NCBI GenBank assembly: GCA_000934665.2 | Contig: KZ538400.1 | Span: 1-64,000, forward strand | Origin: Catajapyx aquilonaris | Lineage: Eukaryota | Reading direction: 5' to 3' | Length of the DNA: 64,000 nt | Part shown: one piece after another, positions 12,133 through 44,964 of the stretch | Layout: each line of letters starts with the position of its first letter | Numbering within the stretch: the first letter of the stretch is position 1 | Program-made: the position numbers and the translations under genes | Notes under the pieces: model-generated | The model's database searches: none | Told to the model about the DNA's origin: nothing | Seen by the model: the letters and a program-made list of their open reading frames with translations, nothing else

Positions 12133-12240
12133 TCACCATTCTGCATCACCATTAGCCTTCTGGAACACATAGTCCTTCCCATTCAAGTTCATGATTCCAT
12201 CCTTCAGGTGGAACTTCCATTTGTTTCGACTCCTTGTAAT
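12133..12240 (-). CDS. TfIIA-L: TFIIA large subunit terminal exon
   Basis: tttcag|ITRSRNKWKFHLKDGIMNLNGKDYVFQKANGDAEW* is the hallmark TFIIA C-terminus; too short to appear in the ORF track. Confidence 0.97.
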   Translation of the reverse strand: MTRSRNKWKFHLKDGIMNLNGKDYVFQKANGDAEW

Positions 12241-17497: not shown

Positions 17498-17650
17498 CAT
17501 ATCTTCTGGGGGGAAGGGGTAAGCAGAGGATGGGGAATATTCAAGAATGGCTTACTTGCAAAATGATCAGTGCTGCCAGATACAGTCAAGCCCCCAATTT
17601 ATGTAATTTGGAACCAGTTTTCAAATAATACAGTTCACTGTATTGTACCT

Positions 17651-17653
<3 letters not shown>

Positions 17654-17729
<76 letters not shown>

Positions 17730-17990
17730 GATACCATGTGATAGGCCTCCTTGGGCCTCTTAGGGGATCATCTTTTGAATAGCCGTCTTTAATCATTGCC
17801 TGCGCTGTGATGGATTTTGATTGTGGGAGGAAACGGGAGAACCCTGAGAAAACCCACGTGAACACGGAGAGAATCCATCGAAACTCTATCCACACAAGAC
17901 CATAAGTATCCTCCGTCCGACCCGGAGATCGAACTTGGGACCTTAGAGGTGGAAGGCTGCGGTGGTAACCACTACACCACCGTGTCGCCC
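17654..17990 (-). mobile_element. tRNA-SINE with V-domain-like core and (TTA)n tail; copies at 48184-48444(+), 58030-58288(-), degraded at ~27745-27925 and ~61860-62015
   Basis: A/B boxes, core GTGGGTTTTCTCGGGGTTCTCCCGTTTCCTCCC, TSD ACTGTAYTGTACCTTAT. Confidence 0.9.
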
Positions 17991-18818: not shown

Positions 18819-19053
18819 AATTACTGTGTCTCGGCCAGGGTGAAATTTGGCGCTGGCGGCGCTACATCATTCACTATACCGCCATCTCGTCAAAGTGCAC
18901 TCAAGTGGTAAGTCTGCGGAAGCAAAGAAAGATCAAGCCAATTGCGGCAGACTACCCGTACCTACCACCAGATGCACCTTGACGAGATGGCAGTATAGCG
19001 AACGATGTAGCGCCACCAGCACCAAATTTCACCCTGGCTGAGACATAGTAATT
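18819..19053. mobile_element. Palindromic MITE
   Basis: ~80-nt TIRs AATTACTGTGTCTCGGCCAGGGTGAAATTTGG / CCAAATTTCACCCTGGCTGAGACATAGTAATT. Confidence 0.8.
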
Positions 19054-19447
19054 ACCCTACCGTATTCGAGGAGTGTCATGGGGCTGGGTACGACAATAGC
19101 GACAAGGGGTGGATCAACTAGTGAGCACACAAAAGGGGGGGGGGGAAAGGGAGGGAGGGAGGGAGGGAGAATTACCTGACCTGAGTATTCTAAGACCATG
19201 GTCTAGTGATAATGAGAACTAATAATTCAATGGCATTTCTTATGTGATGACTAATTAACTTATGAGGTAAGTGATTTTTCGCATTTGGCATCATGGGTTT
19301 GTGGCTGATTCATAAAAGATTAATTACAGTTCTTCATACACAATTTAAAAATCAATACTGAAAATGATGGCCATGATATTAACTAATTCTTTAAAACATA
19401 CACCTTGTACTAGGAGTACAAGTGACTAGGAAAGATGCTCACTGTAC

Positions 19448-19675
19448 CTTGTCATACTGGCAGACAACAACATTATCTGTGTCGAAGAGCTCAGTAGGGT
19501 CATCTTCACTGACGTCATCTTCCGAATTGAGAGGCTCCTCCTGTACACTGAATTCAGACTCTTCTTCATTTTCATCCTCATCCTTATCATCGTTTTCGTC
19601 CTCCTCCTGATCATCTTCATCATCCTCCTCCTCCTCTTCATCTGAAGTGTCTCCACGAGGGCCATCCAAGAACCC
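19448..19675 (-). CDS. TfIIA-L: TFIIA large subunit exon with cleavage-site region, acidic tract and start of the beta-barrel
   Basis: gccag|GFLDGPRGDTSDEEEEED...EEPLNSEDDVSEDDPTELFDTDNVVVCQYDK|gtacag; 228 nt, phase 0-0. Confidence 0.95.
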
Positions 19676-19752
19676 CTGGCATGGAAAGAATTATAGTTAC
19701 CAGTTCATTTGCATACTGGACAACTCAAAATATCCAAAAATGGTTCCCACTT

Positions 19753-19880
19753 GGGGGAACAGTGGTCTAGTGGCTATGTTACTGGCCAGCCAAGCGGGAG
19801 ACCAGGGGTTCAAATCCCGTCCCCGTCACCTTCACTTGGTCAGGTCTTTTCCCACTTTTCACCCAAGTATCCAGGTTAGT
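19753..19880 (+). mobile_element. Degraded tRNA-derived SINE head; related copy at ~39280-39375
   Basis: A box TGGTCTAGTGG, B box GGTTCAAATCCC; downstream body shared with the second copy. Confidence 0.6.
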
Positions 19881-20269
19881 TTGGTTCGAATTTCATTGCG
19901 ATATCTTCATTAGTTTTAAAGTTATTTCAAAATGCCTGGTAAAATAGCTAGTGGGACACAGTGTATCATTGCAAGTCACTTGCAGGCATAGTGCTGGACA
20001 GTAATGGTGTCGTACTGTGGCACCATGAGGCACTGGTGACAAAAGAGTGAATTGAAGTGATGCATTGGCTGCTAATTCATCATTCTGATTAGCTCTTTTG
20101 CCACCATCAGCACGTGGCGCCACCAGTACACCATTAATGTCCAGCACTGTACAACGTTAAACAGTTCAGATTTTAAGCAACTTAGTGTGTCTATGGTCCT
20201 TTCGTCCGGTCGCTCCCTTTCCCAAATTCAAGACTTGTGGGATGAACTTTTGGACATGACTATGCAAAA

Positions 20270-20640
20270 TAAAAATAGCCCAATAGCCGGTGAAACTGCC
20301 GAAAACTATTCTTCCTCTGGGTGAGATTAAAAGTAAGAAACAAGTCCATGGGTGGGGATTGGTTCGAGTCATGGGGATGTGTGATAATTAAATTTAATTC
20401 AAAACATTCGTGCTTTGGGGCTGGGAAGAATTAGGCAGATATCGCTTTTATGTACTTCTCCGACTCTCATACTCTGCCTAATTTTTCCCAGCCCCAAAGC
20501 ACGAATGTTTGGAATTAAATTCAATTATCACACATCCCCATGACACAAACCAACCCCCACCTATGGACTTGTTTCTTACTTTTAATCTCACCCAGAGGAA
20601 GAATAGTTTTCAGCAGTTTTACTGGCTATTTTTACTTAAT
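20270..20640. mobile_element. Palindromic MITE
   Basis: Arms ~20290-20445 and ~20470-20620 are reverse complements. Confidence 0.8.
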
Positions 20641-21516
20641 TCTTTTCATCATCATAATAAAGTAATGTCAAGATATTTTAGGTTCTTTAAATAACACGAC
20701 GTCGTGCCTATTTCTGTGGTACAGAAAGAGAGCAAGAACCACAAAACTGACACTATCGAAATCGCCTCGTAACTCAAAAAATTATGTTTTTTTTTTTCAA
20801 AAAACGGTAGGCAGAAGGGCACCTCCTAGGAACATTGCGGTTCTAATGACACATTGCATGACCCTCTACGACGCACCGTTTAGGCTGTACCCTTGTCGAA
20901 GATACGACACATTTTTGAACTTTGACCCCGGCTAGTGACACCGGTAATGACCCAAGTCGTTGTCAATCTATTTAAAGTTGGTTACAGGAGTTAGCGGAGT
21001 GTAAATCTTGTTTCCGATTTGAAATCGGTTAACCCAATCGTGAGTTATGAAGTCGAAAAATTAACATTGGGAGCATAGCGATTCCATACTATTCCTTTTC
21101 ACTGGCCCTGCATGGAGGAAGAATAGAAATAGTAACTCCACAAAAGTAACTGCCATGCATGTTGATGATAACCCCCACGTTTAGCTAGCCCGAGCCAGTA
21201 TTTAAGATGGACTGAGAGTGTCTTCATGGTCATTCGTCAGTAATCCTCCACATCATCCTTTACAGTCAGCCATTCCATGTTGACCTCTCACTCTTCTAAG
21301 TGAGGCTGTGGCTGTCTGCCATTGGGGTTGGGCCTGACCCCCAATGTGCAGCCAAATCTACCTTTCAGGCTCCATTCCAAATTGTGTGGCAGGGTTACCT
21401 TGGGCTCCATTTCCCCCAGTCCCTATTATGCCCTTCATTGTGTTGCCCTACCTTACCCTTGGGTTGTGGCCAAGTCCCCCCTCCCATCTGTCTGAACTTC
21501 ATTGTTGGTCATATTT

Positions 21517-22142
21517 GAATACATGAATTTCCAAAGGGCCCAAGTCGTCTGTTTGGGCAAAACTGAGGTAAGACCGGAGATCTGTTCACAGTACCGGGCT
21601 GCATATGTATGCTGCATAGGAAGGCCCAAGTCCCATAAGAACAGGAGGAAAATGGCATTGGGAAATTTTGATGTTTGGTAGAAAGGGCAAAACATATTGT
21701 AGAACGACTGGCAGGTGGCGATAGTGGGAAGCATGAGCTGGGTAAGTTATTAGCTGCATGAAAGGACATCACAAAAACAGCAGGTATGGCCTGCAGTAGT
21801 GCCTGCAAAATATGATTTCATGATGTCCATGTACTGCACAATGCATTAGCAGGAGGTATTGACTGCAATATTAGTCTTGGAATGCTGAGGCTACCTCTTC
21901 AGGATTCCATATCCACTTAATGTTTTTCCAAAGGACCCAAGTCAGGCCCTTAATTTTATTTATGATTAGCACACTGTTCGTCGTATGGTGTTAATATTGC
22001 TTCAACACAACCGATTTTAGGTATGGTTCATTGTGTTAAAATCCCAACTGCCAGGCAGTAATTTTGTTCTGTGGCATCGTTTTTTCCTTCTCCTGGAAAT
22101 TTCATGTTGCCGGACTTGGGCCCTTTGGAAATTCATGTATTC
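21517..22142. mobile_element. MITE with 30-nt TIRs and 4-bp ATTT TSD (Sola-like)
   Basis: ATTT|GAATACATGAATTTCCAAAGGGCCCAAGTC...GACTTGGGCCCTTTGGAAATTCATGTATTC|ATTT. Confidence 0.75.
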
Positions 22143-22495
22143 ATTTAATAAAACAAATCTACACCACATTGAGTGTCTCACTGACCACCACTACCTGATG
22201 ATTCAGCACAGAGGTCTGCCTGATAGTCCTCTGGAATTGGCCTTCATGGCACCCGAGAGTTTGGTTTTCATGAAGAATCGTGAGAGAAGCACAGAGGAAG
22301 GGTGTAATTGGACAATGAGAGGAAACACGAGAAACCGCTTATAAACCCTGCTCATCCCCTGTGAAGTCTGGCAGCACTTCTTGTGCAATGGACCTAGAAA
22401 GGGATTTCCTGTGTACTGAATGCCCTGAGGCAGGACACAGTGGTGGGTCGGCCAGGATTACAGAAATTGCTTACCCATGTGATACAGAGACATAC

Positions 22496-22579
22496 CATTT
22501 TTATAGCAAGCCATCTTTCTGGGTCGATAGATTTCATAAGCTTCATACCAGCACGATCGTTACAGTAAACGGGTGGCAT
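22496..22579 (-). CDS. Candidate TFIIA cassette exon F: MPPVYCNDRAGMKLMKSIDPERWLAIKM
   Basis: 67-nt intron from exon E ending ccctctccttccccag; 84 nt open in phase 0; donor ATG|gtatgt (an alternative in-frame TGG|gtaagc donor lies 21 nt further). Confidence 0.5.
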
Positions 22580-22646
22580 CTGGGGAAGGAGAGGGTGATA
22601 GTTAGCCCAGAATTAAAGCAATTGAAAGCAAAAGTTAGAGACATAC

Positions 22647-22724
22647 CTCGAATGAAACTTCAATCTCCTCCTCCTCCTCCTCCTCCTCATCCTCCTCCTC
22701 ACCAGCACCCTTCAAGGTCTTACT
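22647..22724 (-). CDS. Candidate TFIIA cassette exon E: SKTLKGAGEEEDEEEEEEEEIEVSFE
   Basis: Acceptor region homologous to that of exon B; 78 nt open in phase 0; donor GAG|gtatgt. Confidence 0.6.
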
Positions 22725-22798
22725 CTGGGGGAGAAGAGGGTGATTGTTCAGCTAGAATTGTAGCAGATGAGTGCACAAGAGATATTTAATCACAATAA

Positions 22799-23185
22799 AC
22801 CGAAGCAGTAGTGGTGGAGTGGATATGGTGTCCGACTGCTAATCGGGAGGTCCTGGGTTCAAATCCCGGAGGCCGGCGATCCTGACCTTGGTTTTCTGTG
22901 GTTTCCCAAGGTCGCCAGAGGAAAAATTCCGGGATCATACCGTAAAATAGGCCACAGCCGCTTCCTTCCATTCCCTGCCCTGGAGGAGGTGCGGTGTCAG
23001 TCCCCGGGTTTCTGACTCGCATCCAGGGGGTCATCTTGGCGAACGGGCCCCCTGAGAGACTGCACACGACCCCCAACCTGAGACATTGCACATGCACCAG
23101 TGTCCCTCCCTCATTATCCCTGCCCTGTCCCCTGCACCGATGGTGGTATCCCACTCCCCTAAGAGGGCCCTATCACAGGGTATAA
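22799..23185 (+). mobile_element. tRNA-SINE family 2; copies at ~35445-35650, ~37340-37525 and truncated ~39598-39670
   Basis: Head ..GACTGCTAATCGGGAGGTCCTGGGTTCAAATCCC, core GGTTTTCTGTGGTTTCCC..AGGCCACAGCCGCTTCCTTCC, A-rich tail. Confidence 0.85.
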
Positions 23186-23395
23186 CAAAAAAAATAAAAA
23201 ATAAAACAACAACACCACCACCATCACGACATTTCCCTAAGTCAGCGATGACGGGAGACACAAGCTAACCCAAAATATGAACGAAATTAAAACTTGTAAA
23301 AAACAGTCTATAAATGTGTAATATAAGTCTACGATCTCACCTGTTATTTTTGTGGGAACACCAGAGGTAATAACTATTTTCATTTTAAAAAATTA

Positions 23396-23991
23396 CAGTA
23401 AAACTTCCATAAGTCAAACTTCCCTAAGTCGAAGTTCTCTATAAGTCGAAGAAAATGATGAGCTTGGTTGGTCACAATGTAAAATAATAGGAAATAAACT
23501 TCCCTAACTCGAATTTCTATAACTCGCACTTCTCCATAACTCCATAAGTGCAGGTAGGGCCTTACGATGGGATATCAATGCATTTTCAGTCTCCCTAAGT
23601 CAAAGTTCATGTTGGCGAGTGCAGAAAATTTTCTCATTTCCCAACTGAAGGGTCGAGAGTAGGCCACATGTACAGAAAGGCTCAATTTCCTCATCTCCGT
23701 CTACCAGATGTACCGAAAGAAGTGTTTGACTCGATTTTGAATCCTTGAATCTAAGAGTAGGCAAATGTCCATCACAGAGATTTTTTTTTACACCAAAACA
23801 ACGAGGAACATTGTAAGTGTGATATTGACAGTTATTTTTAAGTTTTGAACACCTTTCGTCGCTGGATATAAAGGTAGTCTTCCTTATAGAGTTCTATGCC
23901 TTAAAAAATCCAAACTTCTCTAACTCGAATCTTCTATAACTCGAAGTTTTCCCCCGGTCCCATGGAGATTCGACGTATAGAAGTTTTACTG
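23396..23991. mobile_element. pogo/Tigger-type MITE; partial copies at ~35662-36030 and ~58897-58975
   Basis: TA|CAGTAAAACTTC...GAAGTTTTACTG|TA with internal TAAGTCGAA repeats. Confidence 0.85.
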
Positions 23992-24073
23992 TATTTCATT
24001 AAAGGACATTTACATTAATTTTTGGGGGAAATGAAATTGCACTTTTTTTCACTATTGACCCATATGTAAATAC

Positions 24074-25131
24074 CAGTGCCGGTGAAAGACTTGGTGTGGG
24101 TGTGGAGCACTCCCCACCCGAATGATTCCTCATGGGGAAATTCCCCACCTGAAAATTTCCAACCGTTTTGAAACGAACAATGTCGCAGATCATGTTTTTC
24201 AAACCCCAGAAGAAATGTATCATGCAAAATATTTTGAAGTTCTTGACCAAACAACTACATCGTTGAAAAGTTGAGTCGACAACAAATCGAATAATTTTTT
24301 TTCAGTCTTTAGAAGCGTTTGCTATTGGTATTGATAAGCCCAAGGACATGAAGAAAATTGTCAATTTTTACCAAGGTGATTTCGATGAAGATAGATTAGA
24401 TGAAGATTGTAAATTGTTTTTGAGTTTATTGCTTTAAAAAATGAAAAATTCGAAAATTTGAAAGATGAGGTGAATTTTTTGCACACAGAAAAATGGAGTC
24501 TAGGTATCTTGCCTGAATACATTCGATTCATTATATTGCTATTGACAATACCAGGCTCGTCATGCACAAATGAAAGCTGTTTGGTCCTGAAACGTCTGAA
24601 AAATTATCTTCGAACGACGATGTCCCAAAATCGATTGAACGACATAACAAACAATGTTGCATATTTATTCCGAAGAGGTCGACAAACTTGATGATGAACA
24701 GGTAATGGACGAATTCATGTCTAAAAATTCAAAACGCAGTTTTGTATTCGCACTTTCTCGCAAATAAATGAAAATCATTTTTGGTAATATTGCTCTTACT
24801 AATTCAGTGGTTTCCAACCTTTTACCAACTGCGACCCCCTAATCATGTTTCCATAAATGTGCGACCCCCCCCCCCCCTCAGCCCCTTCTACAACTGCCCC
24901 ATTTCCAGTAAACATACATTATGTACGGCCGCAAAAATGGTTTCATTTACACAGAAATTGTACAAAAAAAAAGATTAACAAAGGCTCGCGACCCCCAGGT
25001 TGGAAACCACTGTACTAATTTATCCCATAACAATTGCACTTGTTTCGAATTTCGAAAATGAGATCCCCCCCCCTCGGCCCCTCCCCTACTTGTTACTCAC
25101 CACCCGGGCTGAATCTGTTTCACAGGCACTG
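24074..25131 (+). mobile_element. Internally deleted hAT transposon with a transposase C-terminal (dimerisation) remnant and a nested hAT MITE at 24805-25012
   Basis: 8-bp TSD GTAAATAC, ends CAGTGCC/GGCACTG; peptide LLLTIPGSSCTNES..LKRLKNYLRTTMSQNRLN; the inner element has TSD TACTAATT and CAGTGGTTTCCAACC TIRs. Confidence 0.9.
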
Positions 25132-25616
25132 GTAAATACGGTAATAGGTGTTGTGACCAGCCTGCTCAATCATATCTGGAGTACTACTGTGATCCTATCC
25201 CGTAGGTGCTGGAGATGCTGAATCTTTTCACCATACATGTATCTCCACAAATAAGTCCATCAGGGTAAGATCTGGGCTTCTGGGGGCCCAGACATGGGGA
25301 AACTTCTCATTCAAGACTTCACACACTGGGAGGCAGAACATATAAAACTTTCATATAGCAGGTCTGTTTCATGGATGAGGCGACATTTTATGTGCATCAT
25401 CAAGAACAATGTGTACGGTGTAAAGACCCATCATCTCCAGCACCTACGGGATAGGATTGCAACGGTAACGCCAGATATGAATGAGCGAGTTTGGCACGAG
25501 ACCGAATAGTGTTTTTTATCTGCTGAGCAACAAATAAAGCTCATATCGAAACAAACTAAGGTGAGACCACAACTTCAGACATTTCTTAGCATTTCAAAAC
25601 TTGTATCATTAAGATA

Positions 25617-26409
25617 CAGTCGAATCCCTCTATAACGAATCTGGATATAACGAAAATCCGCTTATAACGATAGAAAATTTGTGACCGTCAGAGGCCCCAT
25701 ATAAACCCATGTTAAAAATATCCGCTTTTAACAAAAGGATTTTCGGTTTCGGTTCGCATGTATCGAAAAATCTTCGCTCCTCCAGTCCCACCTCTCCGCC
25801 GAAAAAGGGTGGAAGTTGGCAAATTGGGCTATAAATCACCATCTGTGTGGTTGGGATTCAACCTTTTTTCACACATTCCCACCAAGAGTTGATAATTTGG
25901 GGTCCTAATGGAAGGGAATGGATTCTCTGGGAGGGGGGAGGGCTGTCATGCAGTGACTCACTGTCAGAGCTGCCCACTGGATTTACTGCTAGCACGTGGC
26001 CCCCCCAGGGAAGGAGGCAGGTGGTTAAAACCTGGGAAAATTCATAGGAAATTTGAGCAGCAAAACGAATCACATCTGGAAAGGAATTTCCGGACGTGGA
26101 CTGATCATATGCTGCCTAAATGGTGGGATGAGGGCGCCAGCGGAAAAGGAGAAGGGCCGCCTGGCCTGCATCTGGTGCAGTCCTCTGGTGTTTGCTGTAA
26201 CTTATTGTTATCGCGTTTGCGCCATGCTTTGCGAGATAATCTAATTTAGTGCAGAAATTTTTTTTAACTTTTTCCCGCTACCAGGGCTTCATATAACACC
26301 TAAATATCGAAAATAGTGAGGTTTAAATGCGGTTTTTTATATAGCGAAATTCGCATATAACGAAAGAAAATTTGGTTCCCTTCAATTTCGTTATAGAGGG
26401 ATTCGACTG
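25617..26409. mobile_element. pogo/Tigger-type MITE nested in a mariner remnant (~25150-26472)
   Basis: TA|CAGTCGAATCCCTCTATAACGAA...TTCGTTATAGAGGGATTCGACTG|TA; host peptide IKNNVY..LQHLRDRIATVTPDM..VW. Confidence 0.85.
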
Positions 26410-26556
26410 TATGTCTACAAGTATTTGAGTTATAGGATTTTAAAATCTGAGCATTCTTTTTCGATGACCCTGTATTTAAAAAATGAAGGGGGGAGTTGGT
26501 TGAATCGACTATTCCTGGCTACTCGACAACATTGAAAGCAAAAGTTAAAGGCATAC

Positions 26557-26655
26557 CCTGTCTGCACCACGCTGCCTTGATTTACGCTTAGAATCTGCTT
26601 CCTTCAGAGCTGCAAAAAATTCTTCTATAGTCGACTCAGTATAGCTGTCTGTGCT
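26557..26655 (-). CDS. Candidate TFIIA cassette exon D: STDSYTESTIEEFFAALKEADSKRKSRQRGADR
   Basis: 67-nt intron from exon C ending cttcctctccctccacag; 99 nt open in phase 0; donor AGG|gtatgc. Confidence 0.6.
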
Positions 26656-26722
26656 CTGTGGAGGGAGAGGAAGATGGTTCACTCAGTGTTTCAGTAATTG
26701 AAAGCAAATGTTACAGGCATAC

Positions 26723-26803
26723 CCTGCCAGCAGCACCCTGCAATGAAGCGTCTTCAGAAGCTACATCCTTCTCCATAGCAGCACCAGTCAAGATGTTCAT
26801 TCT
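26723..26803 (-). CDS. Candidate TFIIA cassette exon C: RMNILTGAAMEKDVASEDASLQGAAGR
   Basis: 58-nt intron from exon B ending ctcctcccgcag; 81 nt open in phase 0; donor AGG|gtatgc. Confidence 0.6.
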
Positions 26804-26861
26804 CTGCGGGAGGAGGTTCACTCAGTATTGCAGTAATTGAATGCAAAAATTAGTGACAAAC

Positions 26862-26942
26862 CTTGTCTGCATTACTCTGCCGTGACAACCATTTAGAGGC
26901 ACTATCCTCCTTCATAGCAGCACCATTCATGATGACTGTACT
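26862..26942 (-). CDS. Candidate TFIIA cassette exon B: STVIMNGAAMKEDSASKWLSRQSNADK
   Basis: ccctctcctcccccag acceptor, 81 nt open in phase 0, donor AAG|gtttgt. Confidence 0.6.
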
Positions 26943-27227
26943 CTGGGGGAGGAGAGGGTGATTTTTTGTTCAACTAGAATTATAGCAAATAAGTGCATAA
27001 GTTATGTTGAATCACAGTAACCATAGCACTGAAACAGGGCCAAGTTTTCCCTCCTTCCAAGGTTGCAATCATGATTGTTAAACTCATGCGGTGGTACCGT
27101 CCCCTATCAATGATACTGACTTCCAGTACTTAAAAAAATAAGGGGAGAGGTGGTTGAATTGACTATCCCTGACCACTCGACCCCACGTTCAGTGCTAGTG
27201 TTAGGCTGATTCGAGTATACTACATAC

Positions 27228-27311
27228 TGTGTTGATATCATACAGCAATGACAAGGTCTCTCCAACATATCCATCTTCCTGGGCAAAAGAACCATCCAGG
27301 AGGTTTGCACT
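27228..27311 (-). CDS. Candidate TFIIA cassette exon A: SANLLDGSFAQEDGYVGETLSLLYDINT
   Basis: Pyrimidine tract ctttctcctctttcctcag, 84 nt open in phase 0, donor gtatgt. Confidence 0.6.
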
Positions 27312-28466
27312 CTGAGGAAAGAGGAGAAAGTGGTTGTCCAAAAGAATGGGAGTACTTAACTACACTATTACAGTGAATTTACACATCCCTGATTTGGTGA
27401 AATTATAACTGCCATGACCATTTCCTGACAATTCTGCTGACCCCTTGGTGCTTCCACCTGGGCACCCCCATAGCTCTTTTTCCCTCTTTCTTGCCATCTG
27501 TCTTTCTTCTTCTCTTTTTTTTTTCTCTAGGCCCTTAAAATCATCACAGTGGCATCCAGATTCCCAGTCAACCACGGTTGTATGACAGGAGTACAATTCT
27601 GCTGTCCTAAGGAAAAGGGCCCCATCCACAAAACCGGGGACTTTACCAGTTTTGTAGAGAGGGCTCTTTTCCTTGAGTTGGCAGAATTGTGGCTATTGAC
27701 TTGGTCAAGTGACGCAGATGGATCTGCTGATTAATATGGAAAATACCAGGGTGGTGCATTGGTTAGCAACACAGCATTCCACCTCTGGGATCCTGAGTTC
27801 AATCCCTGGATCAGAGAGAGGATTTTCTCAGCTGTACAGTGTCTATGGGTTCTCTCCATGTTTGCAGGAGTTTTCTTGAGGTTCTCCCATTTCCTCCCAC
27901 TATCAAAATTGATCACAGCACAATGAATGAGTAAATGAAGGGAATTTAAAGGATGATCTCTAAAGGCCTCTTTCCACTAGCACTATTTTCGAGCACAAAA
28001 GCAATTTTTGATGGAAAGCACAAAAAGGGAGCCCAAAATGAAGACCAATTCTGGATTATTCCAAAGTAGAAAATGGTGTACTTTTCAGATATTGCATCTT
28101 GCACAAAATGGGAATCAAAGACGGCCAACTGTGCAAGGCCTTGAAACGGTGGAATTAACGGAAGTATTATGTGACAATGCAAGCACAATTGACAGTTAAA
28201 TTAAGCTAAACAATTTTCGGAAAGGGGTGCAGTTTAACCCCTTCACTACCAACTATATCCACCATCACCTAGAAGACTAGATCTTCGCTTACACGTACTA
28301 TGAAGATAAGGGCAATAATATATGCAAATACTGTAAATGAAGGAAAAAAAGTTACTGAAAACACTTGGGCGTAGAGATGCTTTCACAGCAAGAATAAGAG
28401 ACAACTTGGGCACAAAACAGACGTGAGAGTAGTTCAAACATAGAAGCATGATCATTATAGCTATAC

Positions 28467-28794
28467 CATATTTTTGTCGGTAGTGGCAGGTTGCATAAAT
28501 GCTTGATAGATGATCCCTCTCTCCCTGAGGGCTAAGTTGATCTGTTGCTGCAATGCAGCACCAGCCAATTCCACTGGAAGGGAAAAGGTGGCTGCCACTG
28601 ATGGATGGGTCAGAACAGCTTGAAGTTGGTTTCCCTGTAGAGCAATGGCTGGGACGTGAATTGTGAGGGCCTTGCTGGGGCGGTTAGTTCCTGGCTGTGC
28701 CGGAATTGTTATCTGAACTGGTATCATCCGGTTTGGATCTGTTATGGCCAGGGCAGGTGCAAGAGACTGGCTTGGGTTGGGCACATGCAGCTGC

Positions 28795-28841
<47 letters not shown>

Positions 28842-28909
28842 CTGTTGCTGCATACCTGGCTGGTGGGGCTGTTGAGAGGCCTGAAGCTGCTGCGATGCGT
28901 TAGTGTGCT
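28467..28909 (-). CDS. TfIIA-L: TFIIA large subunit exon 3 (polyQ linker and arthropod-type DPNRMIPVQITIP...LTIHVPA..LQGNQL..LQQQIN segment)
   Basis: tttttcag acceptor at 28910-11; phase 1 completes the Lys codon from exon 2; contains a Q20 tract; ends ...TTDKNM|gtatag (phase 0, weak donor). Confidence 0.85.
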
Positions 28910-29199
28910 CTGAAAAATGCAAGGAAACCTTTCAGTTTACATTGCAATGACACTTTAGCACGTATAATAAGACTTGAGGGTGAAGAAGGACTGAACATCT
29001 CGTTTATTGCGGGGTTGCTTTTATATACAAAAGGGGAGGACGCTAGTGTGCCCGTTCAAGGGCAACTGGACAAGGGCATATCCTTTTTCTGGCTTGAAAG
29101 TCTGAAAGGGTGCATCCTGGTTGCAAATTAACTTGTCCTTGTGGTCTAGACGGACTGGCTGGGAATCCGGATGAGAATCCGGATGCCACCACATTAATG

Positions 29200-31106
29200 C
29201 CCCCCTCTGGTGCTGGCTGCTCCTCAGTGAAGGCTTGCTTGAGGCGGTCGATGGAGATTCTCTTCTCTCCCACCGGCACTGTGAAATGCTTGTCGTTCCT
29301 CTCAAGGACAAGATATGGCCCGTCGTAGGGTGGCTGAAGGAGTCTGCGGGTGGCATCGTGTCTTACAAAGACATGTGAGGCTGCACGCTGTCCCGGATTG
29401 ATGAAACAGGGCATTGGCCAGTGTCTGGAGACCGGTTTTGGCCTGATGTGCCGGAAGAGTTCCCGAAGTTGGCTGGCGTGGGTAGGGGCTCCAACCTGCG
29501 ACGATGACGGCTCGAAGAACTCTCCGGGCAAGTGTAGTGTCGTGCAGTACGTAAGCTCGGCACTGCTGGCTTCAAGAGAAGGACCAGGGGCAGGATGTCG
29601 ACCCAATTCTCCCGGTTCAGCTGGGCTTGGAGGGATGCCTTCAGCTGACGATGAAATCTCTCCACCATGGAGTTGGCCTGCGGGTGGTACGCGCAGGTGC
29701 GCCTTCTCTCTATTCCAAACAGTCTGAGGAGTTGGTGATGGAGGTCCGACTCAAACTGAGTACCGCGGTCCGTGGTGATGCAATCGGGACATGCGAAACA
29801 GGCGATCCAAGTAACGACGAAGGCCCGTGCAACGGTCTCTGCCAAGCTGTCGGGAATCGGCACCGCCTCCGGCCAACACGTAAACCTGTCAACGAAGGTC
29901 AGCAGGTACTTGTTGCCATGTGATGATGGAAGGGGGCCCACGATGTCTAGGTGGATGTGGCGAAAGCGGTCATCGGAGGGGTGGGAAAGTGGAGAGAGGG
30001 GCAAGGGTGTGCCTGTGGATCTTAGCTTTTTGGCAGCTGGAGCAGGTACGGACCCATCTCTTGATATCCGCTTGCATGCGGGGGCAGATGTCCCGCTCCG
30101 AGATGAGCCGCTGGGAGGCGCGGATCCCGGGCTGAGCCAGGCTGTGCAGTTTGTCAAAGATGGGACGCCGGAAAGGAGGCCGGGGGTACAAAGGGGCAAT
30201 GACGACCTTGGGAGGTGTCACGTATGACGGACAGGCTGGAGACAGGAATAGGGAAGGCTTGGAACGTGCAGCTAGTGCCACCACGCAGCAAGGTCTGCAG
30301 CTCCTCGTCCATCTCCTGGGCCTGGGCGATGTCTGCATCAGTGATGGCATCCACTGTTGCCAACACGGGTCGGGACAGGGCATCAGCTAGGGTGTTGTCA
30401 GTGCCAGGGATAAAACGGAGGTCTGTTGTGAATTCTGATATGAAGGTGCTATGGCGGCATTGGCGGGGAGAGAGTTTGTCATTGTGGGTACGGAAAATAA
30501 AGGTTAAGGGTTTGTGGTTGGTGAGGATGTAGAATGGGCATCCTTCCAGCAGGTGTCGAAAATGTTTGATGGCAGAGTATATGGCCAGCAGCTCTCGGTC
30601 GAACGAACTGTACCGAGATTAGGACGGGGACAGCTTCTGTGTGAAAAATCCAAGCGGGAGCCACTCGGCTGCATGCAGCTGCTGCACAACGGCGCCAATG
30701 TGGACGTCGGAGGCGTCGGTCATCAACCTCGTGCGGGCATCGCCACATCGCTGCGGGGGTGTGTGAGGAGAGTAGCGTCGGCCAACATCTGTTTGATGTC
30801 TTGGAATGCGGAAGTTGCTTCGGGTGTCCACGTGAGCTTTGGAGAGGCGCTGTTTGCAAGGTTGTGTAAGGGGTGGAGGATTTTGGCAGCGGCGGGAAGG
30901 AACCGGTTGTAGAATTGAATCATGCCAAGGACACGTTTAAGCTGGGGTCTGGTGTAAGGTGGGGAAATGTTGTGGATGGCAGAGACTTTGCATGGGAGGG
31001 GGCAGATCCCTGCAGGGGAGATGGTATGTCCTAGGAACTGGAGCTCTTGTTGGCCAAAGATGCACGTGTCTGGGTTGATCTGGATATGGTGTTGACTGAC
31101 AACCAA
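29200..31106 (-). pseudogene. Gypsy pol remnant (RT C-terminus, RNase H, integrase), frameshifted; protease and RT core missing
   Basis: CIFGQQELQFLGH..LGMIQFYNRFLP; LMTDASD..GAV; HLDIVGPLP..ITTDRGTQF..ANSMVERFHRQLK; LQPPYDGPY, distributed over different frames. Confidence 0.92.
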
Positions 31107-31383
31107 AGTAACTCTTCTGACCCTCTTGAATTTTGAAAAAATTTGGATTATCTAATTCTGCTTGGCCTATGGTGTTGAGAAAACATCACCTCCGCTGCTA
31201 ATTTGTACATTATCAGGGTGAAAATAGAGCCAAAATGTGATGTTCCGAAGCTACAACACCTGCATCTGGTCACGAGTCGCTAGTCCCGGCTTCCCGGCCG
31301 TGGTCGCCTTTCACCGCGTCTGTAGCGCTCTCTGGTGCTGCGAAGGAGAAGGGTCATCTCGCACGCTTTGAAGTCGAAGGCGA

Positions 31384-32151
31384 TTATAATAAAGGAGAGC
31401 CTCCATTATTATAATCGCCTGCGACTTCAAAGCGTGCAAATGACCCTGGCGACTGCGAGGGCTGCGGGGCCAGTAACTGACTGCGAGAGGGCTGGGATGA
31501 GGCCTGTCGGTCAGTTTTGGGCTGTCGTCGGGGGTCATCTGTGGCTGGGCGGTGGGCCGACAGCCGACTGATTGCAGCGGTGAGCTCGGACACCTGCTGC
31601 TGGAGGTCCTGGATGGCGCAGGCTTGGTCCAGGGCAGAGATTGCCGCAACAGATGGGAAGGGTCGGGCAGCATCCATCAGCCTGTTGCCTGCCTCTGTCA
31701 GCTGTGCGGTCGACATGGAATCAGGAGAACCCGCCAATATGGTTCGGACCTGCTGTGGAAGTCGTCGTAGAAACAGCTGCCTGATGAGTGGGTTGTCTCC
31801 GGCAGGTTTCCCCAAGAGCTGCTCCATGTGTTGCAGCATCTGGGATGGGCGCTGATCTCTCATGCCCAGCTCCTGAAGTAGCTGCTGGAGGCAGTGGGAT
31901 TCTGTCGGAGTCGTCCGGCTGATGAGTGCAGCCTTGAGGGCCGTGTACTGGCCGGTCACGGGAGGGTTGATCAATACGTCCCGGACTTTTGTGGTGATCT
32001 CAGGGGCCAGACAGGCTGCCACATGGTGGAATTTGGTCTGCTCTGTAGTGATGGAACGGATAGTGAACTGGGCTGCAACTTGGGCGAACCACAAGTCGGG
32101 GTCCGCTGGCAAGAAAGGAGGCATCTTCAGTGCGATGGTGGCTTGCTCCAT
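31384..32151 (-). pseudogene. Gypsy gag, 3'-truncated
   Basis: KMPPFLPADPDLWFAQVAAQF..ITTEQTKFHHV..YTALKAALI..RPSQMLQHM..LFLRRLP. Confidence 0.9.
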
Positions 32152-32591
32152 GTTGCGGGGCGGCGTGAAGAAACGTCGGGGTCACCAGTCTAGCGCGTAT
32201 AATAAGACTCGAGGCTGAAGAAGGACTGAACATCTCATTTATTGCGGGGTTGCTTTTATATACAAAAGGGGAGGGCGCTAGTGCACCCGTTCAAGGGCAA
32301 CTGGACAAGGGCATATCCTTATTCTGGCTTAAAAGTCTGGAAGGGTGCATCCTGGTTGCGGATTAACTTGTCCTTGTGGTCTAGACGGACTGGCTGGAAA
32401 TCCGGGTGAGAATCCGGATGCCACCACAACACATTACATGTTCATTAGAGCATTTGATGGGGGAGGGGGGGGGGAGGGGAGGAGGAGGAGGAGGAGAAAT
32501 TACATGAGAGGATATTCCCAACTACACTTAATTAAAATATGAAAGCTGACACAACACCTATGTCGAGTAAGATAACATCCTGTATACTGTA

Positions 32592-33535: not shown

Positions 33536-36289
33536 TATTGCTCAAAATCATCTCTGTTTTTGAGCAATATAGTACAACATCTACTGTTAAAATCTCCACC
33601 CACAGCCTTATCTGAGTGTAATCTACTCTGGACATCTGACCACAATAACTGGGTGGGTGGGTGGGGGGGGGGGGGAATCAGACACCTGGCTAGACACAGT
33701 TATCAGGTGGAAGTTGTGCACCTTGGTCGGTTGGGTGGCGATTGGAGTAGAGGAGTGGTGGGGTAGTGGAGGGGTGTAGCAACATCACCGCCCCTTTGAG
33801 CGCCTCTAGCGGCCAAATGGTTTGTCAGAGAAAACCACCACATGGCTCATTCGACTCAGTTCATGAACCTCTACAGTCTACAACATATAGGCTATTAAAA
33901 TGAACCCAATAGGAGCCACCTGATATTCCGACTTTGAGCGCCTCTAGCGTAGATTTCCTTCAGCCTTCAGAACAATTGACCCTAAGGTCAAGGTGTATCA
34001 ACTGACTAAGTTTCATCGAAAGGTTCAACTTTTGCCATAAGGACCCAACCATATCCTTTAGTGTTTGCTTAAAATGGGTGCGTGGGGGGGGGGGCGACGA
34101 CATATCCGTAAATATCATTCCCTTTTCCCAATTTGCATTTTCAGTACGGTACAGGAAGTCCCTGGTGATCGGTACTTACGAACGGGCTGCCAAGGCTCCC
34201 TATATAAATAATTTATAATACCCCTCCACTCTCAATCACTTCTGCATAATATGCAGAAGTGATTGAGAGTGGAGGGGTAATTATGTTGACCAACACCATG
34301 TTCAACATAAATACTGTATAATTTAGAAAGAATTCCAAATCTGCTTCATTCCGCACCTGTAAACAAGTCCACATTCTGACTTAAACAGTTCGTTGGCACA
34401 GCATCTTTATGCTAGCAGCTATTATTTATATTACCGTGTGTGCAGTTTTCACCAGGGACCGAAGCAGGTTGTGTCACGAGTGACATTTGACCAGTGGCTT
34501 GTCCCTCGGACCGAGTGTGATATTTTTTGCTACCTGACCTTGCTAGGCCAGGAGGTGGCTTTTGGAGCCAACGGAGCAATTGTGCTCAGTGAACGCTGGA
34601 GCGGCTTGTGATAGCTTGTCTCTTTTTGGGGGCTCACCTGAGGACCTGTGATGGCAAATCTGCTAGGGATCCTCAGGTGAAGTTGGAAGTGGGTTGTACG
34701 TGGGAAAATTATACACGGGGCCTTTACACTCTTCTCATTGTGAGTGAGAGCACTTCCTTTTTACGTGGGAAAATTGTACACGTTCATTTACCCCCCCCCT
34801 TCCTAGTGTGGATGGGTTACTTCTCTTTATTTGAGAGAATTACGCTATGGAAGCTTCATCTTTTTTTGGGAATGTGTCATTCCTTCTGGTGGTGAAATTG
34901 CACCAACTCGAAGAAGCATTTGGTTTGATGCGTAGAGAATTGCGCATCTAAAGCATACTTCGAAGTTGCAACATCGTCCTTATCCTTTTGGTAAATTCGA
35001 CGTGTGGTTCCGGTTACGGGATCATCTATTCACCCAGGAGAATTGTACCTTGGTGTTCACCAGTGAGTGAGTGCTTAGTGTCATTTGTTAACTCCATTTG
35101 GCCCAGTGCAAATTGTGGCTTGGAGTTGGAAGCAAGTGATTGTGCTTCCGTACGCGAAGTGATTTTTCTTGGCTGGAGCCATGTAATATTGGATTCTCAT
35201 TGTGAGTATTTTGGTGTGATCATTCAGGCTTGTTCGAGTTGTAAGTCCATCCTTCCTAGCCGTCCATTTACCCTCCTGTTTTTTTGTGAACCTTAAGTTT
35301 TCTTTTGAAGGCAATGTTCCTCCTCTCGCCTGAATTGTTGTGGTGATAATAAAATTGTACTTTTCGTAATTAGCACTCTTAGTATGTTCTTCTCTGCTTG
35401 ACTTGTGAGGTCGATATTACCCTCCTGAAAATTGTCTTCGTGACAGGTTGGCATGATGGATAAGGCGTCTGACTGATAATTGGGAGGTCCTGGGTTCGAA
35501 TCCTGGGGCCGACGATCCTGACCGTGGTATCTGTGGTTTTCCACTGTCTTCCTAGGATAATTCCAGGGTCGCTTCCGTATAATAGGCCACAGCCGCTTCC
35601 TTCCTACCCTATCCTTGGAGGTTGATGAGGCAATGCCGGGTCAACCTCCCTAATATCAATTACAGTAAAACTTCTATAAGTCGAACTTCCCTAAGTCGAA
35701 GTTCTCTATAAGTCGAAGAAAATGATGAGCTTGGTTGGTCACAATGTAAAATAATAGGAAATAAACTTCCCTAACTCGAATTTCTATAGCTCGAAGTTCT
35801 CCATAACTCCATAAGTGCAGGCAGGGCCTTACGATGGGATATCAATGCATTTTCAGTCTCCCTAAGTCGAAGTTCATGTTGGCGAGTACAGAAAATTTTC
35901 TCATTTCCCAACTGAAGGGTCGGGAGTAGGCCACATGTACAGAAAGGCTCAATTTCCTCATCTCCGTCTACCAGATGTACCGAAAGAAGTGTTTGACTCG
36001 ATTGTGACAATTGAATCCTTGAATCTAAAACTGCCCAGCGTGCCCATGAGTTAAGACAACATGAGTACAACAATAAAATGTAATTATGCCCCTAATTGTA
36101 ATGTAGTTAAATACTAGGTAGACACTCATACAACCCCTAGCATATAGAGCCCTTGCTTGGTGGCACTTGTCTCTCCCCAGACCACCCCAGCTGTCATAAA
36201 GCACAGTCACAATAACATGTGCCGCATGCCTTTACAATCAGGTTTGACTATAGTAGTCCTACTTGCAAAGAGAAGAAAAGGAAACATAC

Positions 36290-36497
36290 TTGCAGAGGTG
36301 TGGTTTCCTTGGTGTCCCGGAACTTGAAGATGATCATGCTGATGATCAGCATTGGGTTCAATGGCTTTGCTGCTCACCAACTTTGTCTCCCAAATCTGCT
36401 TTAATTCTAGTAAGACTTGTTCATCAACCCCTTCATCCAAGAAGCACTCTCGGACACCATTCACCACATCTTCTATCACACTTCGATACATCTTTGG
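36290..36497 (-). CDS. TfIIA-L: TFIIA large subunit exon 2 (conserved region I helices)
   Basis: ttccag|PKMYRSVIEDVVNGVRECFLDEGVDEQVLLELKQIWETKLVSSKAIE...HTSA-A|gtatgt; phase 0 to 1. Confidence 0.95.
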
Positions 36498-37019: not shown

Positions 37020-37338
37020 TGGGGAGGTGTGGTGGCCAAGATGGTAATGTCTAGGCTTGCTGAGTGAAAGATCCAAGGTTCGATCCCCGCTTGGGAGTTC
37101 CCTTTCACCTGCGTCAGGAGGGTCTCTGACCTGCCCCTTGGAGGTGTCTGGCAACCTAGCCTCCTGGGGGACTGCATATGGCCCGACACAATGACAATGT
37201 ACCTGCACAAGTGTCCCCTCCCCAACAATTCCTGTCCCTACCCCTCATCCTGAAGTCCTTGCACGGAGATTGAAGTAAATAGGAAAATGGTTCTGAATGG
37301 TGGTAATCCACTCCCCTACAGACCCTTATTGGGTTATA
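37020..37338 (+). mobile_element. tRNA-SINE family 3; copies at ~37860-38174(-), ~56035-56370(+), ~57155-57497(+)
   Basis: GGGGAGGTGTGGTGGCC..GGTTCGATCCCC..CCTTTCACCTGCGTCAGGAGGGTCT shared by four copies. Confidence 0.85.
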
Positions 37339-37632
37339 ACACCGAAGCAGTAGTCGTGTAGTGGTATGGTGTCCGACTGCTAATCGGGAGGTCCTGGGTT
37401 CGAATCCCGGAGGCCGGCGACCCTGATCATGGTTTTCTGTGGTTTCCCATGGTCACCGCAGGATAATTCCGGGGTCATTACCGTAATTATAGGCCACAGC
37501 CGCTTCCTTCCTTACCTATCCTTGCCTCAATTCCGGTGAAAAAGTATAGTAAAGATGGAAAGAGTTCCAGACAAAAAAATTGGGAGAAATCCCCCCCCTA
37601 ATAAAGCCTAAAGGGCTGATAATGGGGTATCA

Positions 37633-44940: not shown

Positions 44941-44964
44941 CACGACAGCCTGACTTTGAGCCAT
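44941..44964 (-). CDS. TfIIA-L: TFIIA large subunit (alpha/beta precursor), coding exon 1: MAQSQAVV
   Basis: ATG GCT CAA AGT CAG GCT GTC GTG|gtgagt with a consensus donor; phase 0 matches exon 2, which begins PKMYRSV. Resembles the short first coding exon of GTF2A1 orthologues. Confidence 0.8.

Follow-up and report, generated by a model that had tools for sequence, protein, structure and literature searches.

A probable lineage-specific set of in-frame cassette exons in the linker of a TFIIA-L gene from Catajapyx aquilonaris

Does a row of small, exon-like units within one intron of a TFIIA-L gene contribute to the TFIIA-L protein? The window, a 64,000-nt stretch of contig KZ538400.1 from Catajapyx aquilonaris, raises this question on its minus strand, where a sequence-only reading had described six tandemly duplicated small exons, each of which could be added to the message in frame. 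Our verdict is that the units are probably cassette exons, a set specific to this lineage, lying in a disordered linker. More exactly, on the sequence we lean with modest confidence towards a lineage-specific tandem array in the TFIIA-L intron, whose units would be spliced, now or until recently, as in-frame cassettes.

Pfam, tblastn and family-profile searches identified the host as an insect-type TFIIA-L gene, as had been proposed. Its exons, and a retroelement remnant outside the array, are arranged as follows.

44941..44964, minus strand: TFIIA-L exon 1, 8 coding codons beginning with the ATG (donor GTGAGT)
36290..36497, minus strand: TFIIA-L exon 2, encoding the conserved N-terminal domain (phase 1 at its end)
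29046..32181, minus strand: LTR-retroelement remnant, frame-broken, within intron 2
28467..28909, minus strand: TFIIA-L exon 3, poly-Q and conserved middle (ends in phase 0 at 28467; weak donor GTATAG)
19448..19675, minus strand: TFIIA-L acidic exon (starts in phase 0 at 19675, residues G-F-L-D-G)
12133..12240, minus strand: TFIIA-L last exon with stop codon (profile and P0001 match)

Residues 1-8, from exon 1, are identical in P0001, the nearest protein found. Exon 2 matched Pfam PF03153 (E = 1.4e-21; 78.4 bits, cut-off 36.2), the family profile (E = 2.9e-27) and P0001 (81% identity by tblastn), and exon 3 matched P0001 at 76% identity and the profile at E = 1e-29. The acidic exon was recovered by the profile (E = 3e-27), and its score against PF03153 when taken alone, 26.8 bits, lies under a cut-off meant for the whole protein. 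In the last exon 35/35 residues are the same as in P0001 (profile E = 1.1e-25). The retroelement remnant carries the Pfam domains rve, RT_RNaseH and DUF7041, each on a separate ORF.

We also considered a fast-evolving TFIIA-L paralogue and rejected it, since the window gene scores as well as P0001 against 119 relatives. Overall its exons scored no lower than those of P0001, falling below them with 63/119 relatives for exon 2, 3/119 for the tail of exon 3 and 29/119 for the C-terminal part of the acidic exon.

The array lies in the 8.8-kb intron that separates exon 3 from the acidic exon. All six units described earlier were found, with the positions, lengths, signals and open phase 0 claimed for them; a seventh intron (22495-22425) and the candidate unit G beyond it had been overlooked.

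27228..27311, minus strand: unit A, 84 nt, phase 0-0; strongest pyrimidine tract (18/20)
26862..26942, minus strand: unit B, 81 nt, phase 0-0; donor GTTTGT
26723..26803, minus strand: unit C, 81 nt, phase 0-0
26557..26655, minus strand: unit D, 99 nt, phase 0-0; longer than B and C by an 18-nt in-frame insertion
22647..22724, minus strand: unit E, 78 nt, phase 0-0; largely an acidic (GAG)n run
22496..22579, minus strand: unit F, 84 nt, phase 0-0
22347..22424, minus strand: candidate unit G, 78 nt, phase 0 open; weak donor GTTTAT

Such units might instead be a dead intronic minisatellite of pseudo-exons, an alternative that we consider unlikely. It would hold that a module of ~140-150 nt, perhaps derived from a former exon, was amplified in tandem and is rarely or never spliced, and that its open frame and splice-like ends persist by chance and shared ancestry. 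The splice signals argue against this. All 12 splice dinucleotides of A-F are intact, the donors comprise five GTATG and one GTTTG, and a CAG acceptor stands behind a pyrimidine-rich tract in 6/6 units. Unit signals match or surpass those of the canonical exons: acceptors have 12-18/20 pyrimidines, compared to 12-14/20 at four canonical TFIIA-L acceptors, and donors have 6-7/9 consensus matches, compared to 5-7/9. If the units were dead, splicing would need to pass over six or seven strong acceptors for a weaker one 8.8 kb away. We note that unit F has an alternative donor, GTAAGC, which keeps the frame and moves the exon end to 22475.

The reading frame likewise speaks against a dead minisatellite. 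Phase 0, the frame set by the flanking exons, is free of stops in 6/6 units, compared to 1/12 open among frames 1 and 2. Frame 0 has 0 stops in 169 codons, with 10.7 expected from composition (P about 1.6e-5) and 11 and 13 in frames 1 and 2, and nucleotide use by codon position resembles that of canonical CDS (chi2 of 48.9, or 32.8 without unit E; the 99th percentile of intron pieces is 17.0), where both tests count homologous units as independent and are applied to a region that had been picked for its open-frame, spliced look. The exon parts of A-G all have lengths divisible by 3; the intron parts (58, 67, 67 and 71 nt) do not. Script-joined models gave the protein sizes reported before, 336 aa when every unit is skipped and 505 aa when all six are included, and the earlier claim that any subset stays in frame was borne out by 64/64 subsets, each with one unbroken ORF.

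Some of the evidence on constraint favours the minisatellite. In a neutral drift simulation started from open sequences, B-F all stayed open in 445-1416 of 20000 runs (2.2-7.1%), and an analytic estimate gave 0.3-2.6%. Open frames by chance, at a few per cent, are thus unlikely but not negligible. Moreover, B and C differ at codon positions 1/2/3 by 11/10/7 changes, with no third-position excess, which points to constraint only on the open frame and not on the peptide. The earlier argument that retention of frame and splice sites suggests selection holds to the extent that retention goes beyond neutral drift; it does not extend to the peptide. Neutral non-coding DNA would likewise show no third-position excess. 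Two features of single units count against cassettes: the peptide of F is hydrophobic, with Cys, Trp and Met, unlike a typical acidic linker, and the in-frame length change of E falls within its triplet repeat.

The introns between the units, and the repeats in the longest of them, are listed below; we call the conserved minimal intron the I element.

26804..26861, minus strand: minimal intron B to C (I element), 58 nt
26656..26722, minus strand: minimal intron C to D (I element), 67 nt
22725..26556, minus strand: intron D to E, 3.8 kb; I element split by dispersed-repeat insertions
22580..22646, minus strand: minimal intron E to F (I element), 67 nt
22425..22495, minus strand: seventh I-type minimal intron, after F, 71 nt, with its own CAG acceptor
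22795-22986: tRNA-derived SINE in intron D to E (further copies at 35457-35621, 37336-37511 and 39597-39671)
23391-23754: dispersed repeat in intron D to E (matches 35658-36028)

By sequence comparison, units B-F are tandem duplicates of a module made of an exon and a minimal intron of 58-71 nt. Significant exon or flank similarity joins all five, and the scores of the key pairs were reached in 0/300 shuffles (B vs C exons, z = 14.5; B vs E upstream flanks, z = 23.7). Unit A showed no significant similarity to the other units, in the exon or its immediate flanks, so the description of six tandem duplicates stands for B-F only. A weak I-element profile match stops exactly at the acceptor of A (E = 3.3, not significant). 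The body of G had no significant similarity to the other units either, and this, with its weak donor at the 3' end of the array, is what a minisatellite might leave. The introns are modestly better conserved than the exon bodies (best pairs 76-88% identical, compared to 59-72%). Introns after B-E were said to begin alike. The motif was found three times in the window, after C, D and E (up to 3 mismatches; 0.00 expected), and the start after B is diverged yet homologous, with z = 10.8 over the first 40 nt downstream of B and C and 0/300 shuffles as high. Intron B to C, which matched the I-element profile at E = 5.6e-13, is one of that profile's own training copies; the seventh intron belongs to family D2, at 61% identity to the reference copy. 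Both larger duplicated blocks reported before are real: 26904-27020 resembles 22689-22798 (78.6% over 117 nt), and 27127-27181, after A, resembles 26473-26527, after D (about 83% over 59 nt).

We considered whether the module might be part of a dispersed repeat, that is, an exonised transposable-element fragment that came to lie in tandem by chance, with the repeat's conserved part posing as an intron. The host intron is rich in dispersed repeats (the SINE copies, the 23391-23754 repeat), intron D to E also carries elements bounded by inverted repeats, and the 59-nt block that recurs after A and D could be a repeat end. We regard this explanation as very improbable, however, given that motif, profile and blastn searches found no I element or unit body outside the array in the 64-kb window (next-best profile match, E = 2.2), that the intron motif had 0 matches in a metagenome contig collection, and that the frame and length pattern would be left unexplained. 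For the proviso that the unit must not be a multi-copy repeat, the space covered was the other 59 kb of the window and the metagenome contigs, where no copy was found; copies beyond that space would still suit the repeat explanation. Rfam gave 8 matches within 19000-29000 (E up to 1), none at gathering score and none overlapping a unit or minimal intron.

Candidate unit G bears on a further explanation, in which the units are spliced but into something other than a longer complete TFIIA-L. A transcript that includes E and F would run into G, meet the stop at 22205-22203, and then end at a downstream poly(A) signal or undergo nonsense-mediated decay. The outcome would be an isoform with the alpha part only, lacking the acidic and beta-barrel regions, or else unproductive splicing of a regulatory kind; in a variant of this explanation, the units would make up a separate nested transcript. 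Several features are consistent with truncation: the acceptor of G is good (15/20 pyrimidines) and lies behind the seventh minimal intron, 71 nt past F; its donor, GTTTAT, matches consensus at only 5/9 positions; without that donor the frame continues 73 codons to the stop; and ATTAAA at 22149 and AATAAA at 21960 lie 3' of the unit. The G acceptor and weak donor could in this way divert E-F transcripts to a premature stop. Nevertheless, we hold this explanation to be improbable. With GTTTAT in use, G is 78 nt long and open in phase 0, and may simply be the seventh cassette of the row; an open frame across A-F would be of little use in a transcript bound for decay; and we identified neither a promoter nor a first or terminal exon for a nested gene.

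Comparison with relatives gave evidence in both directions. P0001 (339 aa, from a 1788-nt contig) shows no trace of the units, and its length fits the 336-aa skip form, which counts against cassettes and agrees with a minisatellite in a gene whose skip form is of normal length. The unit peptides had no similar protein, relative or Pfam family in the databases searched, as a minisatellite would also predict. In a profile of 120 relatives, on the other hand, the skip form has nothing to match positions 206-237, in the linker ahead of Q-L-D-G; as a gap to fill, this would favour the cassettes.

Under the cassette reading, which we prefer, the module of the tandem array is a small exon in phase 0 at both ends with its 58-71 nt minimal intron. 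Six or seven copies are now present, later repeat insertions having split the array into A, B-C-D and E-F-G. The layout of the array, the homology among B-F and the statistical excess in retained frame and splice sites are shown by the sequence; beyond this, we infer that TFIIA-L mRNA includes the units as in-frame cassettes, or did so until recently, each contributing 26-33 residues (169 for A-F together, net charge -15). The added peptide would be a spacer free of constraint and probably disordered, placed where the alpha part ends C-terminally, immediately upstream of the acidic region. Selection would maintain an open frame and working splice signals and leave the peptide sequence alone. 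Since the introns within blocks are minimal (58-71 nt), block-wise inclusion (B-C-D, E-F-G) appears more likely than free combination.

Tandem exon duplication was reportedly recognized as a source of alternative exons by Kondrashov and Koonin in 2001 and by Letunic et al. in 2002. The type of event is already known, and the TFIIA-L array would be another case of it. A published account also treats it as such a source (PMC9741552). The units resemble that process in being adjacent homologous exons copied with flanking intron, with splice sites and phase kept. In the classic cases, two exons of the same length are mutually exclusive and replace each other within a folded domain. In contrast, the TFIIA-L units are 78-99 nt long, strongly diverged, addable in frame, and placed in a linker.

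A mutually exclusive cluster of the Dscam type was rejected, since the units range from 78 to 99 nt and their peptides resemble each other only weakly (mean column identity 37%). Dscam-type clusters depend on competing RNA pairing, in which conserved intronic selectors are complementary to one docking site. We found no docking/selector pairing for the six intron starts: their best duplexes along the pre-mRNA (-17.7 to -23.4 kcal/mol) fall at differing places and are no stronger than those of 10 shuffled controls, which span -18.8 to -28.3 kcal/mol.

The PEVK exons of titin are another parallel, being an array of phase-symmetric small exons in a disordered region. Like them, the units are phase-symmetric exons of ~80 nt, in tandem, with ~27 low-constraint residues each, potentially differentially included; unlike them, they are far fewer, their host is a basal transcription factor and not a structural spring protein, and their inclusion is only predicted. 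Phase-symmetric small exons in disordered protein regions are presented as a general principle in a further account (PMC3632108).

Within TFIIA-L itself, ant and wasp isoform models (NCBI X1-X3; pairs include P0009/P0031, P0050/P0091, P0024/P0025 and P0036/P0081) differ by an in-frame linker cassette of 13-17 residues in 5/6 pairs, and the sixth pair by 3 residues at the same place. By analogy, these provide a precedent for in-frame linker cassettes in TFIIA-L. The ant/wasp cassette differs in that it is single, lies at the exon 2/exon 3 boundary (residue 78) and not in an array before the acidic exon, and shares no sequence similarity with the units.

Vertebrate ALF/GTF2A1L and Drosophila Moonshiner are germline TFIIA-L paralogues encoded by separate genes, and the earlier suggestion of tissue-specific use had drawn on them. 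The comparison is an analogy only: variant large-subunit forms would arise here too, although inside one gene, from units within TFIIA-L itself. The window gene does not look like a separate, diverged copy of the germline kind, the units being intragenic and the exons not low-scoring. Tissue-specific or germline use of the units is unsupported, and we think it doubtful, from the sequence features, that A, B-C-D and E-F-G act as regulated cassette blocks to yield a TFIIA-L isoform set, or an alpha-only form through G. If they did, the alpha-subunit tail would gain up to about 170-195 residues in certain tissues, such as the germline, or exit through G would produce an alpha-only form with neither the acidic nor the beta-barrel part; in either case the locus would offer a splicing-based counterpart to the gene-duplication route of ALF and Moonshiner.

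Before the acidic run, relatives carry the Taspase1-type cleavage motif Q-[VLIF]-D-G, with the Q kept in 114/120. The window gene does not match this motif, since G-F-L-D-G has F in place of Q; in a regulated isoform set, such a change would fit altered processing of the alpha/beta precursor. The Q-to-F change is a departure, though Q-[VLIF]-D-G is not a defining feature of Pfam PF03153.

A complete gene for the TFIIA large subunit (TFIIA-L), a single essential basal factor, lies on the minus strand of the window. Its exons, compared here with the closest database protein (P0001, a TFIIA-L of 339 aa), are as follows.

44964-44941, minus strand: exon 1, coding part; first eight residues identical to those of P0001
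36497-36290, minus strand: exon 2; Pfam PF03153, E = 1.4e-21
28909-28467, minus strand: exon 3; poly-Q and conserved middle part; ends in phase 0
19675-19448, minus strand: acidic exon; starts in phase 0
12240-12133, minus strand: last exon; completes the protein

Searching the 2152 six-frame ORFs of the window with a profile built from 120 TFIIA-L relatives, we recovered exactly the four internal and terminal exons (E = 1e-25 to 1e-29). The relatives are insects, the top-scoring named ones being termite, stick insect, katydid and cockroach, and on this basis the DNA is probably that of a polyneopteran-grade insect. P0001 is 81% identical to the window gene in exon 2, 76% in exon 3 and 100% in the last exon. 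A search of a 5.8-billion protein set for longer proteins similar to exon 3 returned P0001 alone (76% identity) and no protein of the species itself; exon 3 matched none of the proteins of 80-258 aa in the protein database. A fast-evolving paralogue was ruled out, since the window exons score as well as those of P0001 against 119 relatives. At its start (19675-19661, minus strand) the acidic exon reads G-F-L-D-G, with F in place of Q whatever exon precedes. Among the 120 insect relatives, 114 carry Q-[VLIF]-D-G there, the Taspase1-type site.

Between exon 3 and the acidic exon lie six small exon-like units, each preceded by a pyrimidine tract and CAG, followed by GT, and open in phase 0.

27311-27228, minus strand: unit A, 84 nt
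26942-26862, minus strand: unit B, 81 nt
26803-26723, minus strand: unit C, 81 nt
26655-26557, minus strand: unit D, 99 nt
22724-22647, minus strand: unit E, 78 nt
22579-22496, minus strand: unit F, 84 nt

These coordinates and properties had been proposed in the sequence-only reading and all proved correct, as did its claim that any subset would splice in frame: with both flanking exons in phase 0, all 64 subsets keep frame, the models running from 336 aa with none of the units (the skip form, exon 3 joined straight to the acidic exon) to 505 aa with all six. The intron-start motif that it had put forward occurs three times in 64 kb (0.00 expected), and both larger duplicated blocks that it had named are present. 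Its description of all six units as tandem duplicates needs amending, in that pairwise tests of exon bodies and flanks tie together B, C, D, E and F, whereas A has no significant similarity to any of them. In a crude scan of both strands for acceptor-donor pairs (a pyrimidine tract and YAG, 45-150 nt, then GT(A/G)(AG/TG)), 11 of 67 candidates were open in phase 0 with a length that is a multiple of 3, and 5 of these 11 lie in the array, an alternative donor of F included. This second donor, GTAAGC, 21 nt downstream (22495-22475, minus strand), is more consensus-like, keeps the frame and gives an exon of 105 nt.

The repeated module consists of one small exon and one minimal intron, which we call the I element. 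Its complete copies, and a further candidate unit, are these.

B to C, minus strand: complete I element, 58 nt
C to D, minus strand: complete I element, 67 nt
E to F, minus strand: complete I element, 67 nt
22495-22425, minus strand: seventh I element, 71 nt, after F, with its own CAG at the end
22424-22347, minus strand: candidate unit G, 78 nt, open in phase 0, weak donor GTTTAT

Directly before B and before E stand the 3' portions of other I elements. After D comes the 5' portion of one more, cut short where dispersed repeats totalling about 3.7 kb have been inserted. An I-type profile match also ends at the acceptor of A, at a non-significant E = 3.3. It is very improbable, in our estimate, that the module was itself derived from a repeat: outside the array, neither a profile search of the window (next best E = 2.2) nor blastn within it found a copy of the I element. 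The conserved minimal intron matched no family in Rfam. Metagenome contigs gave 0 matches to the intron motif, and 589 pattern matches to the exon 3 tail, of which 0 were confirmed. If the donor of G is not used, the frame runs on to a stop at 22205-22203, with an ATTAAA at 22149. That the units are spliced but lead via G to an alternative end or to decay, or else into a nested transcript, is an outcome that we hold to be improbable.

We found that the array is made of frame-symmetric, splice-competent units in tandem, from one module, and that frame has been retained beyond neutral expectation. Two of the tests, on stop counts and on periodicity, make the evidence look more independent than it is, because the units are homologous. 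Across the 169 codons of A-F there are 0 stops in frame 0, compared to 10.7 predicted from base composition (frame 1, 11; frame 2, 13), and codon-position nucleotide use resembles that of canonical coding sequence (G at position 1, A at position 2), with a chi2 of 48.9, or 32.8 without E, relative to a 99th percentile of 17.0 among random intron pieces. A frame-0 stop is created by 4.8% of all possible single substitutions in the units. In simulated neutral drift at the observed divergence, all five of B-F were open in 2.2-7.1% of 20000 runs, and a star-tree calculation of the same question gave 0.3-2.6%. Exon-part lengths are all multiples of 3 despite indels (D +18; E -3, in a triplet repeat; F +3), whereas the intron parts (58, 67, 67 and 71 nt) are not. 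The open frame of the units is the one required by the neighbouring TFIIA-L exons. Splice signals are at least as strong as those of canonical exons, with 12-18 pyrimidines in 20 nt at unit acceptors (canonical, 12-14) and 6-7 of 9 donor consensus matches (canonical, 5-7 of 9). The signals of the array, a region selected for its exon-like look, exceed chance and are partly independent of each other.

Against these signals we weighed the explanation that the array is a dead pseudo-exon minisatellite, which we consider unlikely but a real possibility. P0001 is without any counterpart of the units and matches the skip form in length, which counts against exon use. B and C differ at 11, 10 and 7 sites of codon positions 1, 2 and 3, respectively; the peptide sequence as such therefore shows no sign of being constrained. 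In favour of exon use, the skip form has no counterpart of family profile positions 206-237, the roughly 30-residue linker before Q-L-D-G in other insects, and so would have an unusually short linker.

On sequence grounds, we lean towards the explanation that the units are cassette exons lengthening the disordered alpha-side linker of TFIIA-L, with an unconstrained peptide and with inclusion more likely block-wise. They would be spliced as predicted cassette exons of TFIIA-L, and would extend the linker immediately upstream of the acidic region, units A-F together contributing a net charge of -15. Introns of 58-71 nt are in the size range usually removed by intron definition in insects; with intra-block introns this short, B-C-D and E-F(-G) would be likelier to be included or skipped as blocks than as 64 free combinations. 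Since the peptide sequence looks unconstrained, the role would be one of spacer length or charge and would not depend on any particular fold or motif. Competing RNA pairing as a basis for mutually exclusive splicing was rejected, as no common docking/selector site rose above shuffled controls. The sequence-only reading had pictured a modular, possibly tissue-specific set of isoforms built by exon duplication under selection; this stands in part, in that duplication and selection on frame hold.

The unit peptides resemble little else. Against the 120 TFIIA-L relatives, blastp-short gave matches to acidic runs and, apart from these, a single weak lead: unit C aligned with three gaps (E = 0.013) to an exon-3-type segment from a hymenopteran. 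None of the seven units matched a Pfam family. The units also go unrecognised by the family profile, for which the ORF with E alone appears, at E = 1.3. A six-unit profile had two matches among 1.84 billion representative proteins (E = 2.3e-4 and 4.9e-4), both judged to be chance, as they are long proteins of a different repeat aligned to profile positions 1-14 only. When the units were compared as DNA with the start of the acidic exon and with the end of exon 3, E and the acidic exon formed the sole significant pair (z = 12.2), due to a shared (GAG)n run, and C reached a marginal score with the end of exon 3 (z = 3.4, equalled by 1 of 200 shuffles). A derivation of the units from the acidic-exon start or the exon 3 end would thus be unsupported by DNA, low-complexity sequence and one marginal score aside, and is neither shown nor excluded.

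Titin PEVK is an example of phase-symmetric exons multiplied in a disordered region. The array belongs to tandem exon duplication, and it fits the general pattern of phase-symmetric exons multiplying in disordered regions, as set out in two published accounts (PMC9741552, PMC3632108). In ants and wasps, NCBI isoform models of TFIIA-L are told apart by a short in-frame cassette where exon 2 meets exon 3, of 13-17 residues in five of the six pairs compared and 3 in the sixth. Three of the six pairs show a further difference of one glutamine, roughly ten residues ahead of Q-L-D-G. Given this linker cassette, an optional linker mini-exon in TFIIA-L is not new in kind. What is new is an array of six or seven units, placed in the intron that precedes the TFIIA-L acidic exon; no such array was found in a search of the literature on insect TFIIA-L alternative splicing and GTF2A1 cassette exons. 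The specialised TFIIA-L versions known so far are products of gene duplication. ALF and Moonshiner, to which the earlier reading had likened the array, are separate genes, whereas the array lies within the TFIIA-L gene, and none of the observations ties it to the germline. If the units are expressed, exon duplication in a dispensable linker would be another route to diversify TFIIA-L, and a clean example of selection on frame and splice signals alone while the peptide drifts; if they are not, the array is a well-preserved set of pseudo-exons of little consequence. Two other relatives show linker peculiarities: in P0002, from a stick insect, a 13-residue linker segment is repeated twice in tandem, and P0120, a mosquito gene model of 504 aa, has two Q-L-D-G motifs about 150 residues apart. 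Together they hint at a tendency of this region to duplicate internally in other insects, unless they reflect gene-model errors.

Repeats and other features of the window are listed here.

29046-32181, minus strand: LTR-retroelement remnant, frame-broken, in TFIIA-L intron 2; integrase core, RT-RNase H and a DUF7041 gag-like part on separate ORFs
22795-22986, 35457-35621, 37336-37511, 39597-39671 and also 19761-19819: tRNA-derived SINE copies, 81-90% alike
20282-20630: inverted repeat, MITE-like hairpin; 158 nt, 94% complementary, 33 nt between arms
23391-23754 (D to E intron) and 35658-36028 (just downstream of exon 2): a further dispersed repeat in two copies, which share 95.7% identity across 371 nt
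about 17590-17760, minus strand: long trinucleotide microsatellite within the intron that separates the acidic exon from the last exon; poly-L/poly-Y ORF translations
2440-2623 and 40758-40759: assembly gaps, runs of N

Three miRNA families match the inverted repeat below threshold, each falling well short of its gathering score, and one SINE copy contains a sub-threshold Rfam tRNA match (22812-22869). One SINE copy lies directly upstream of the I-element remnant that precedes unit E.
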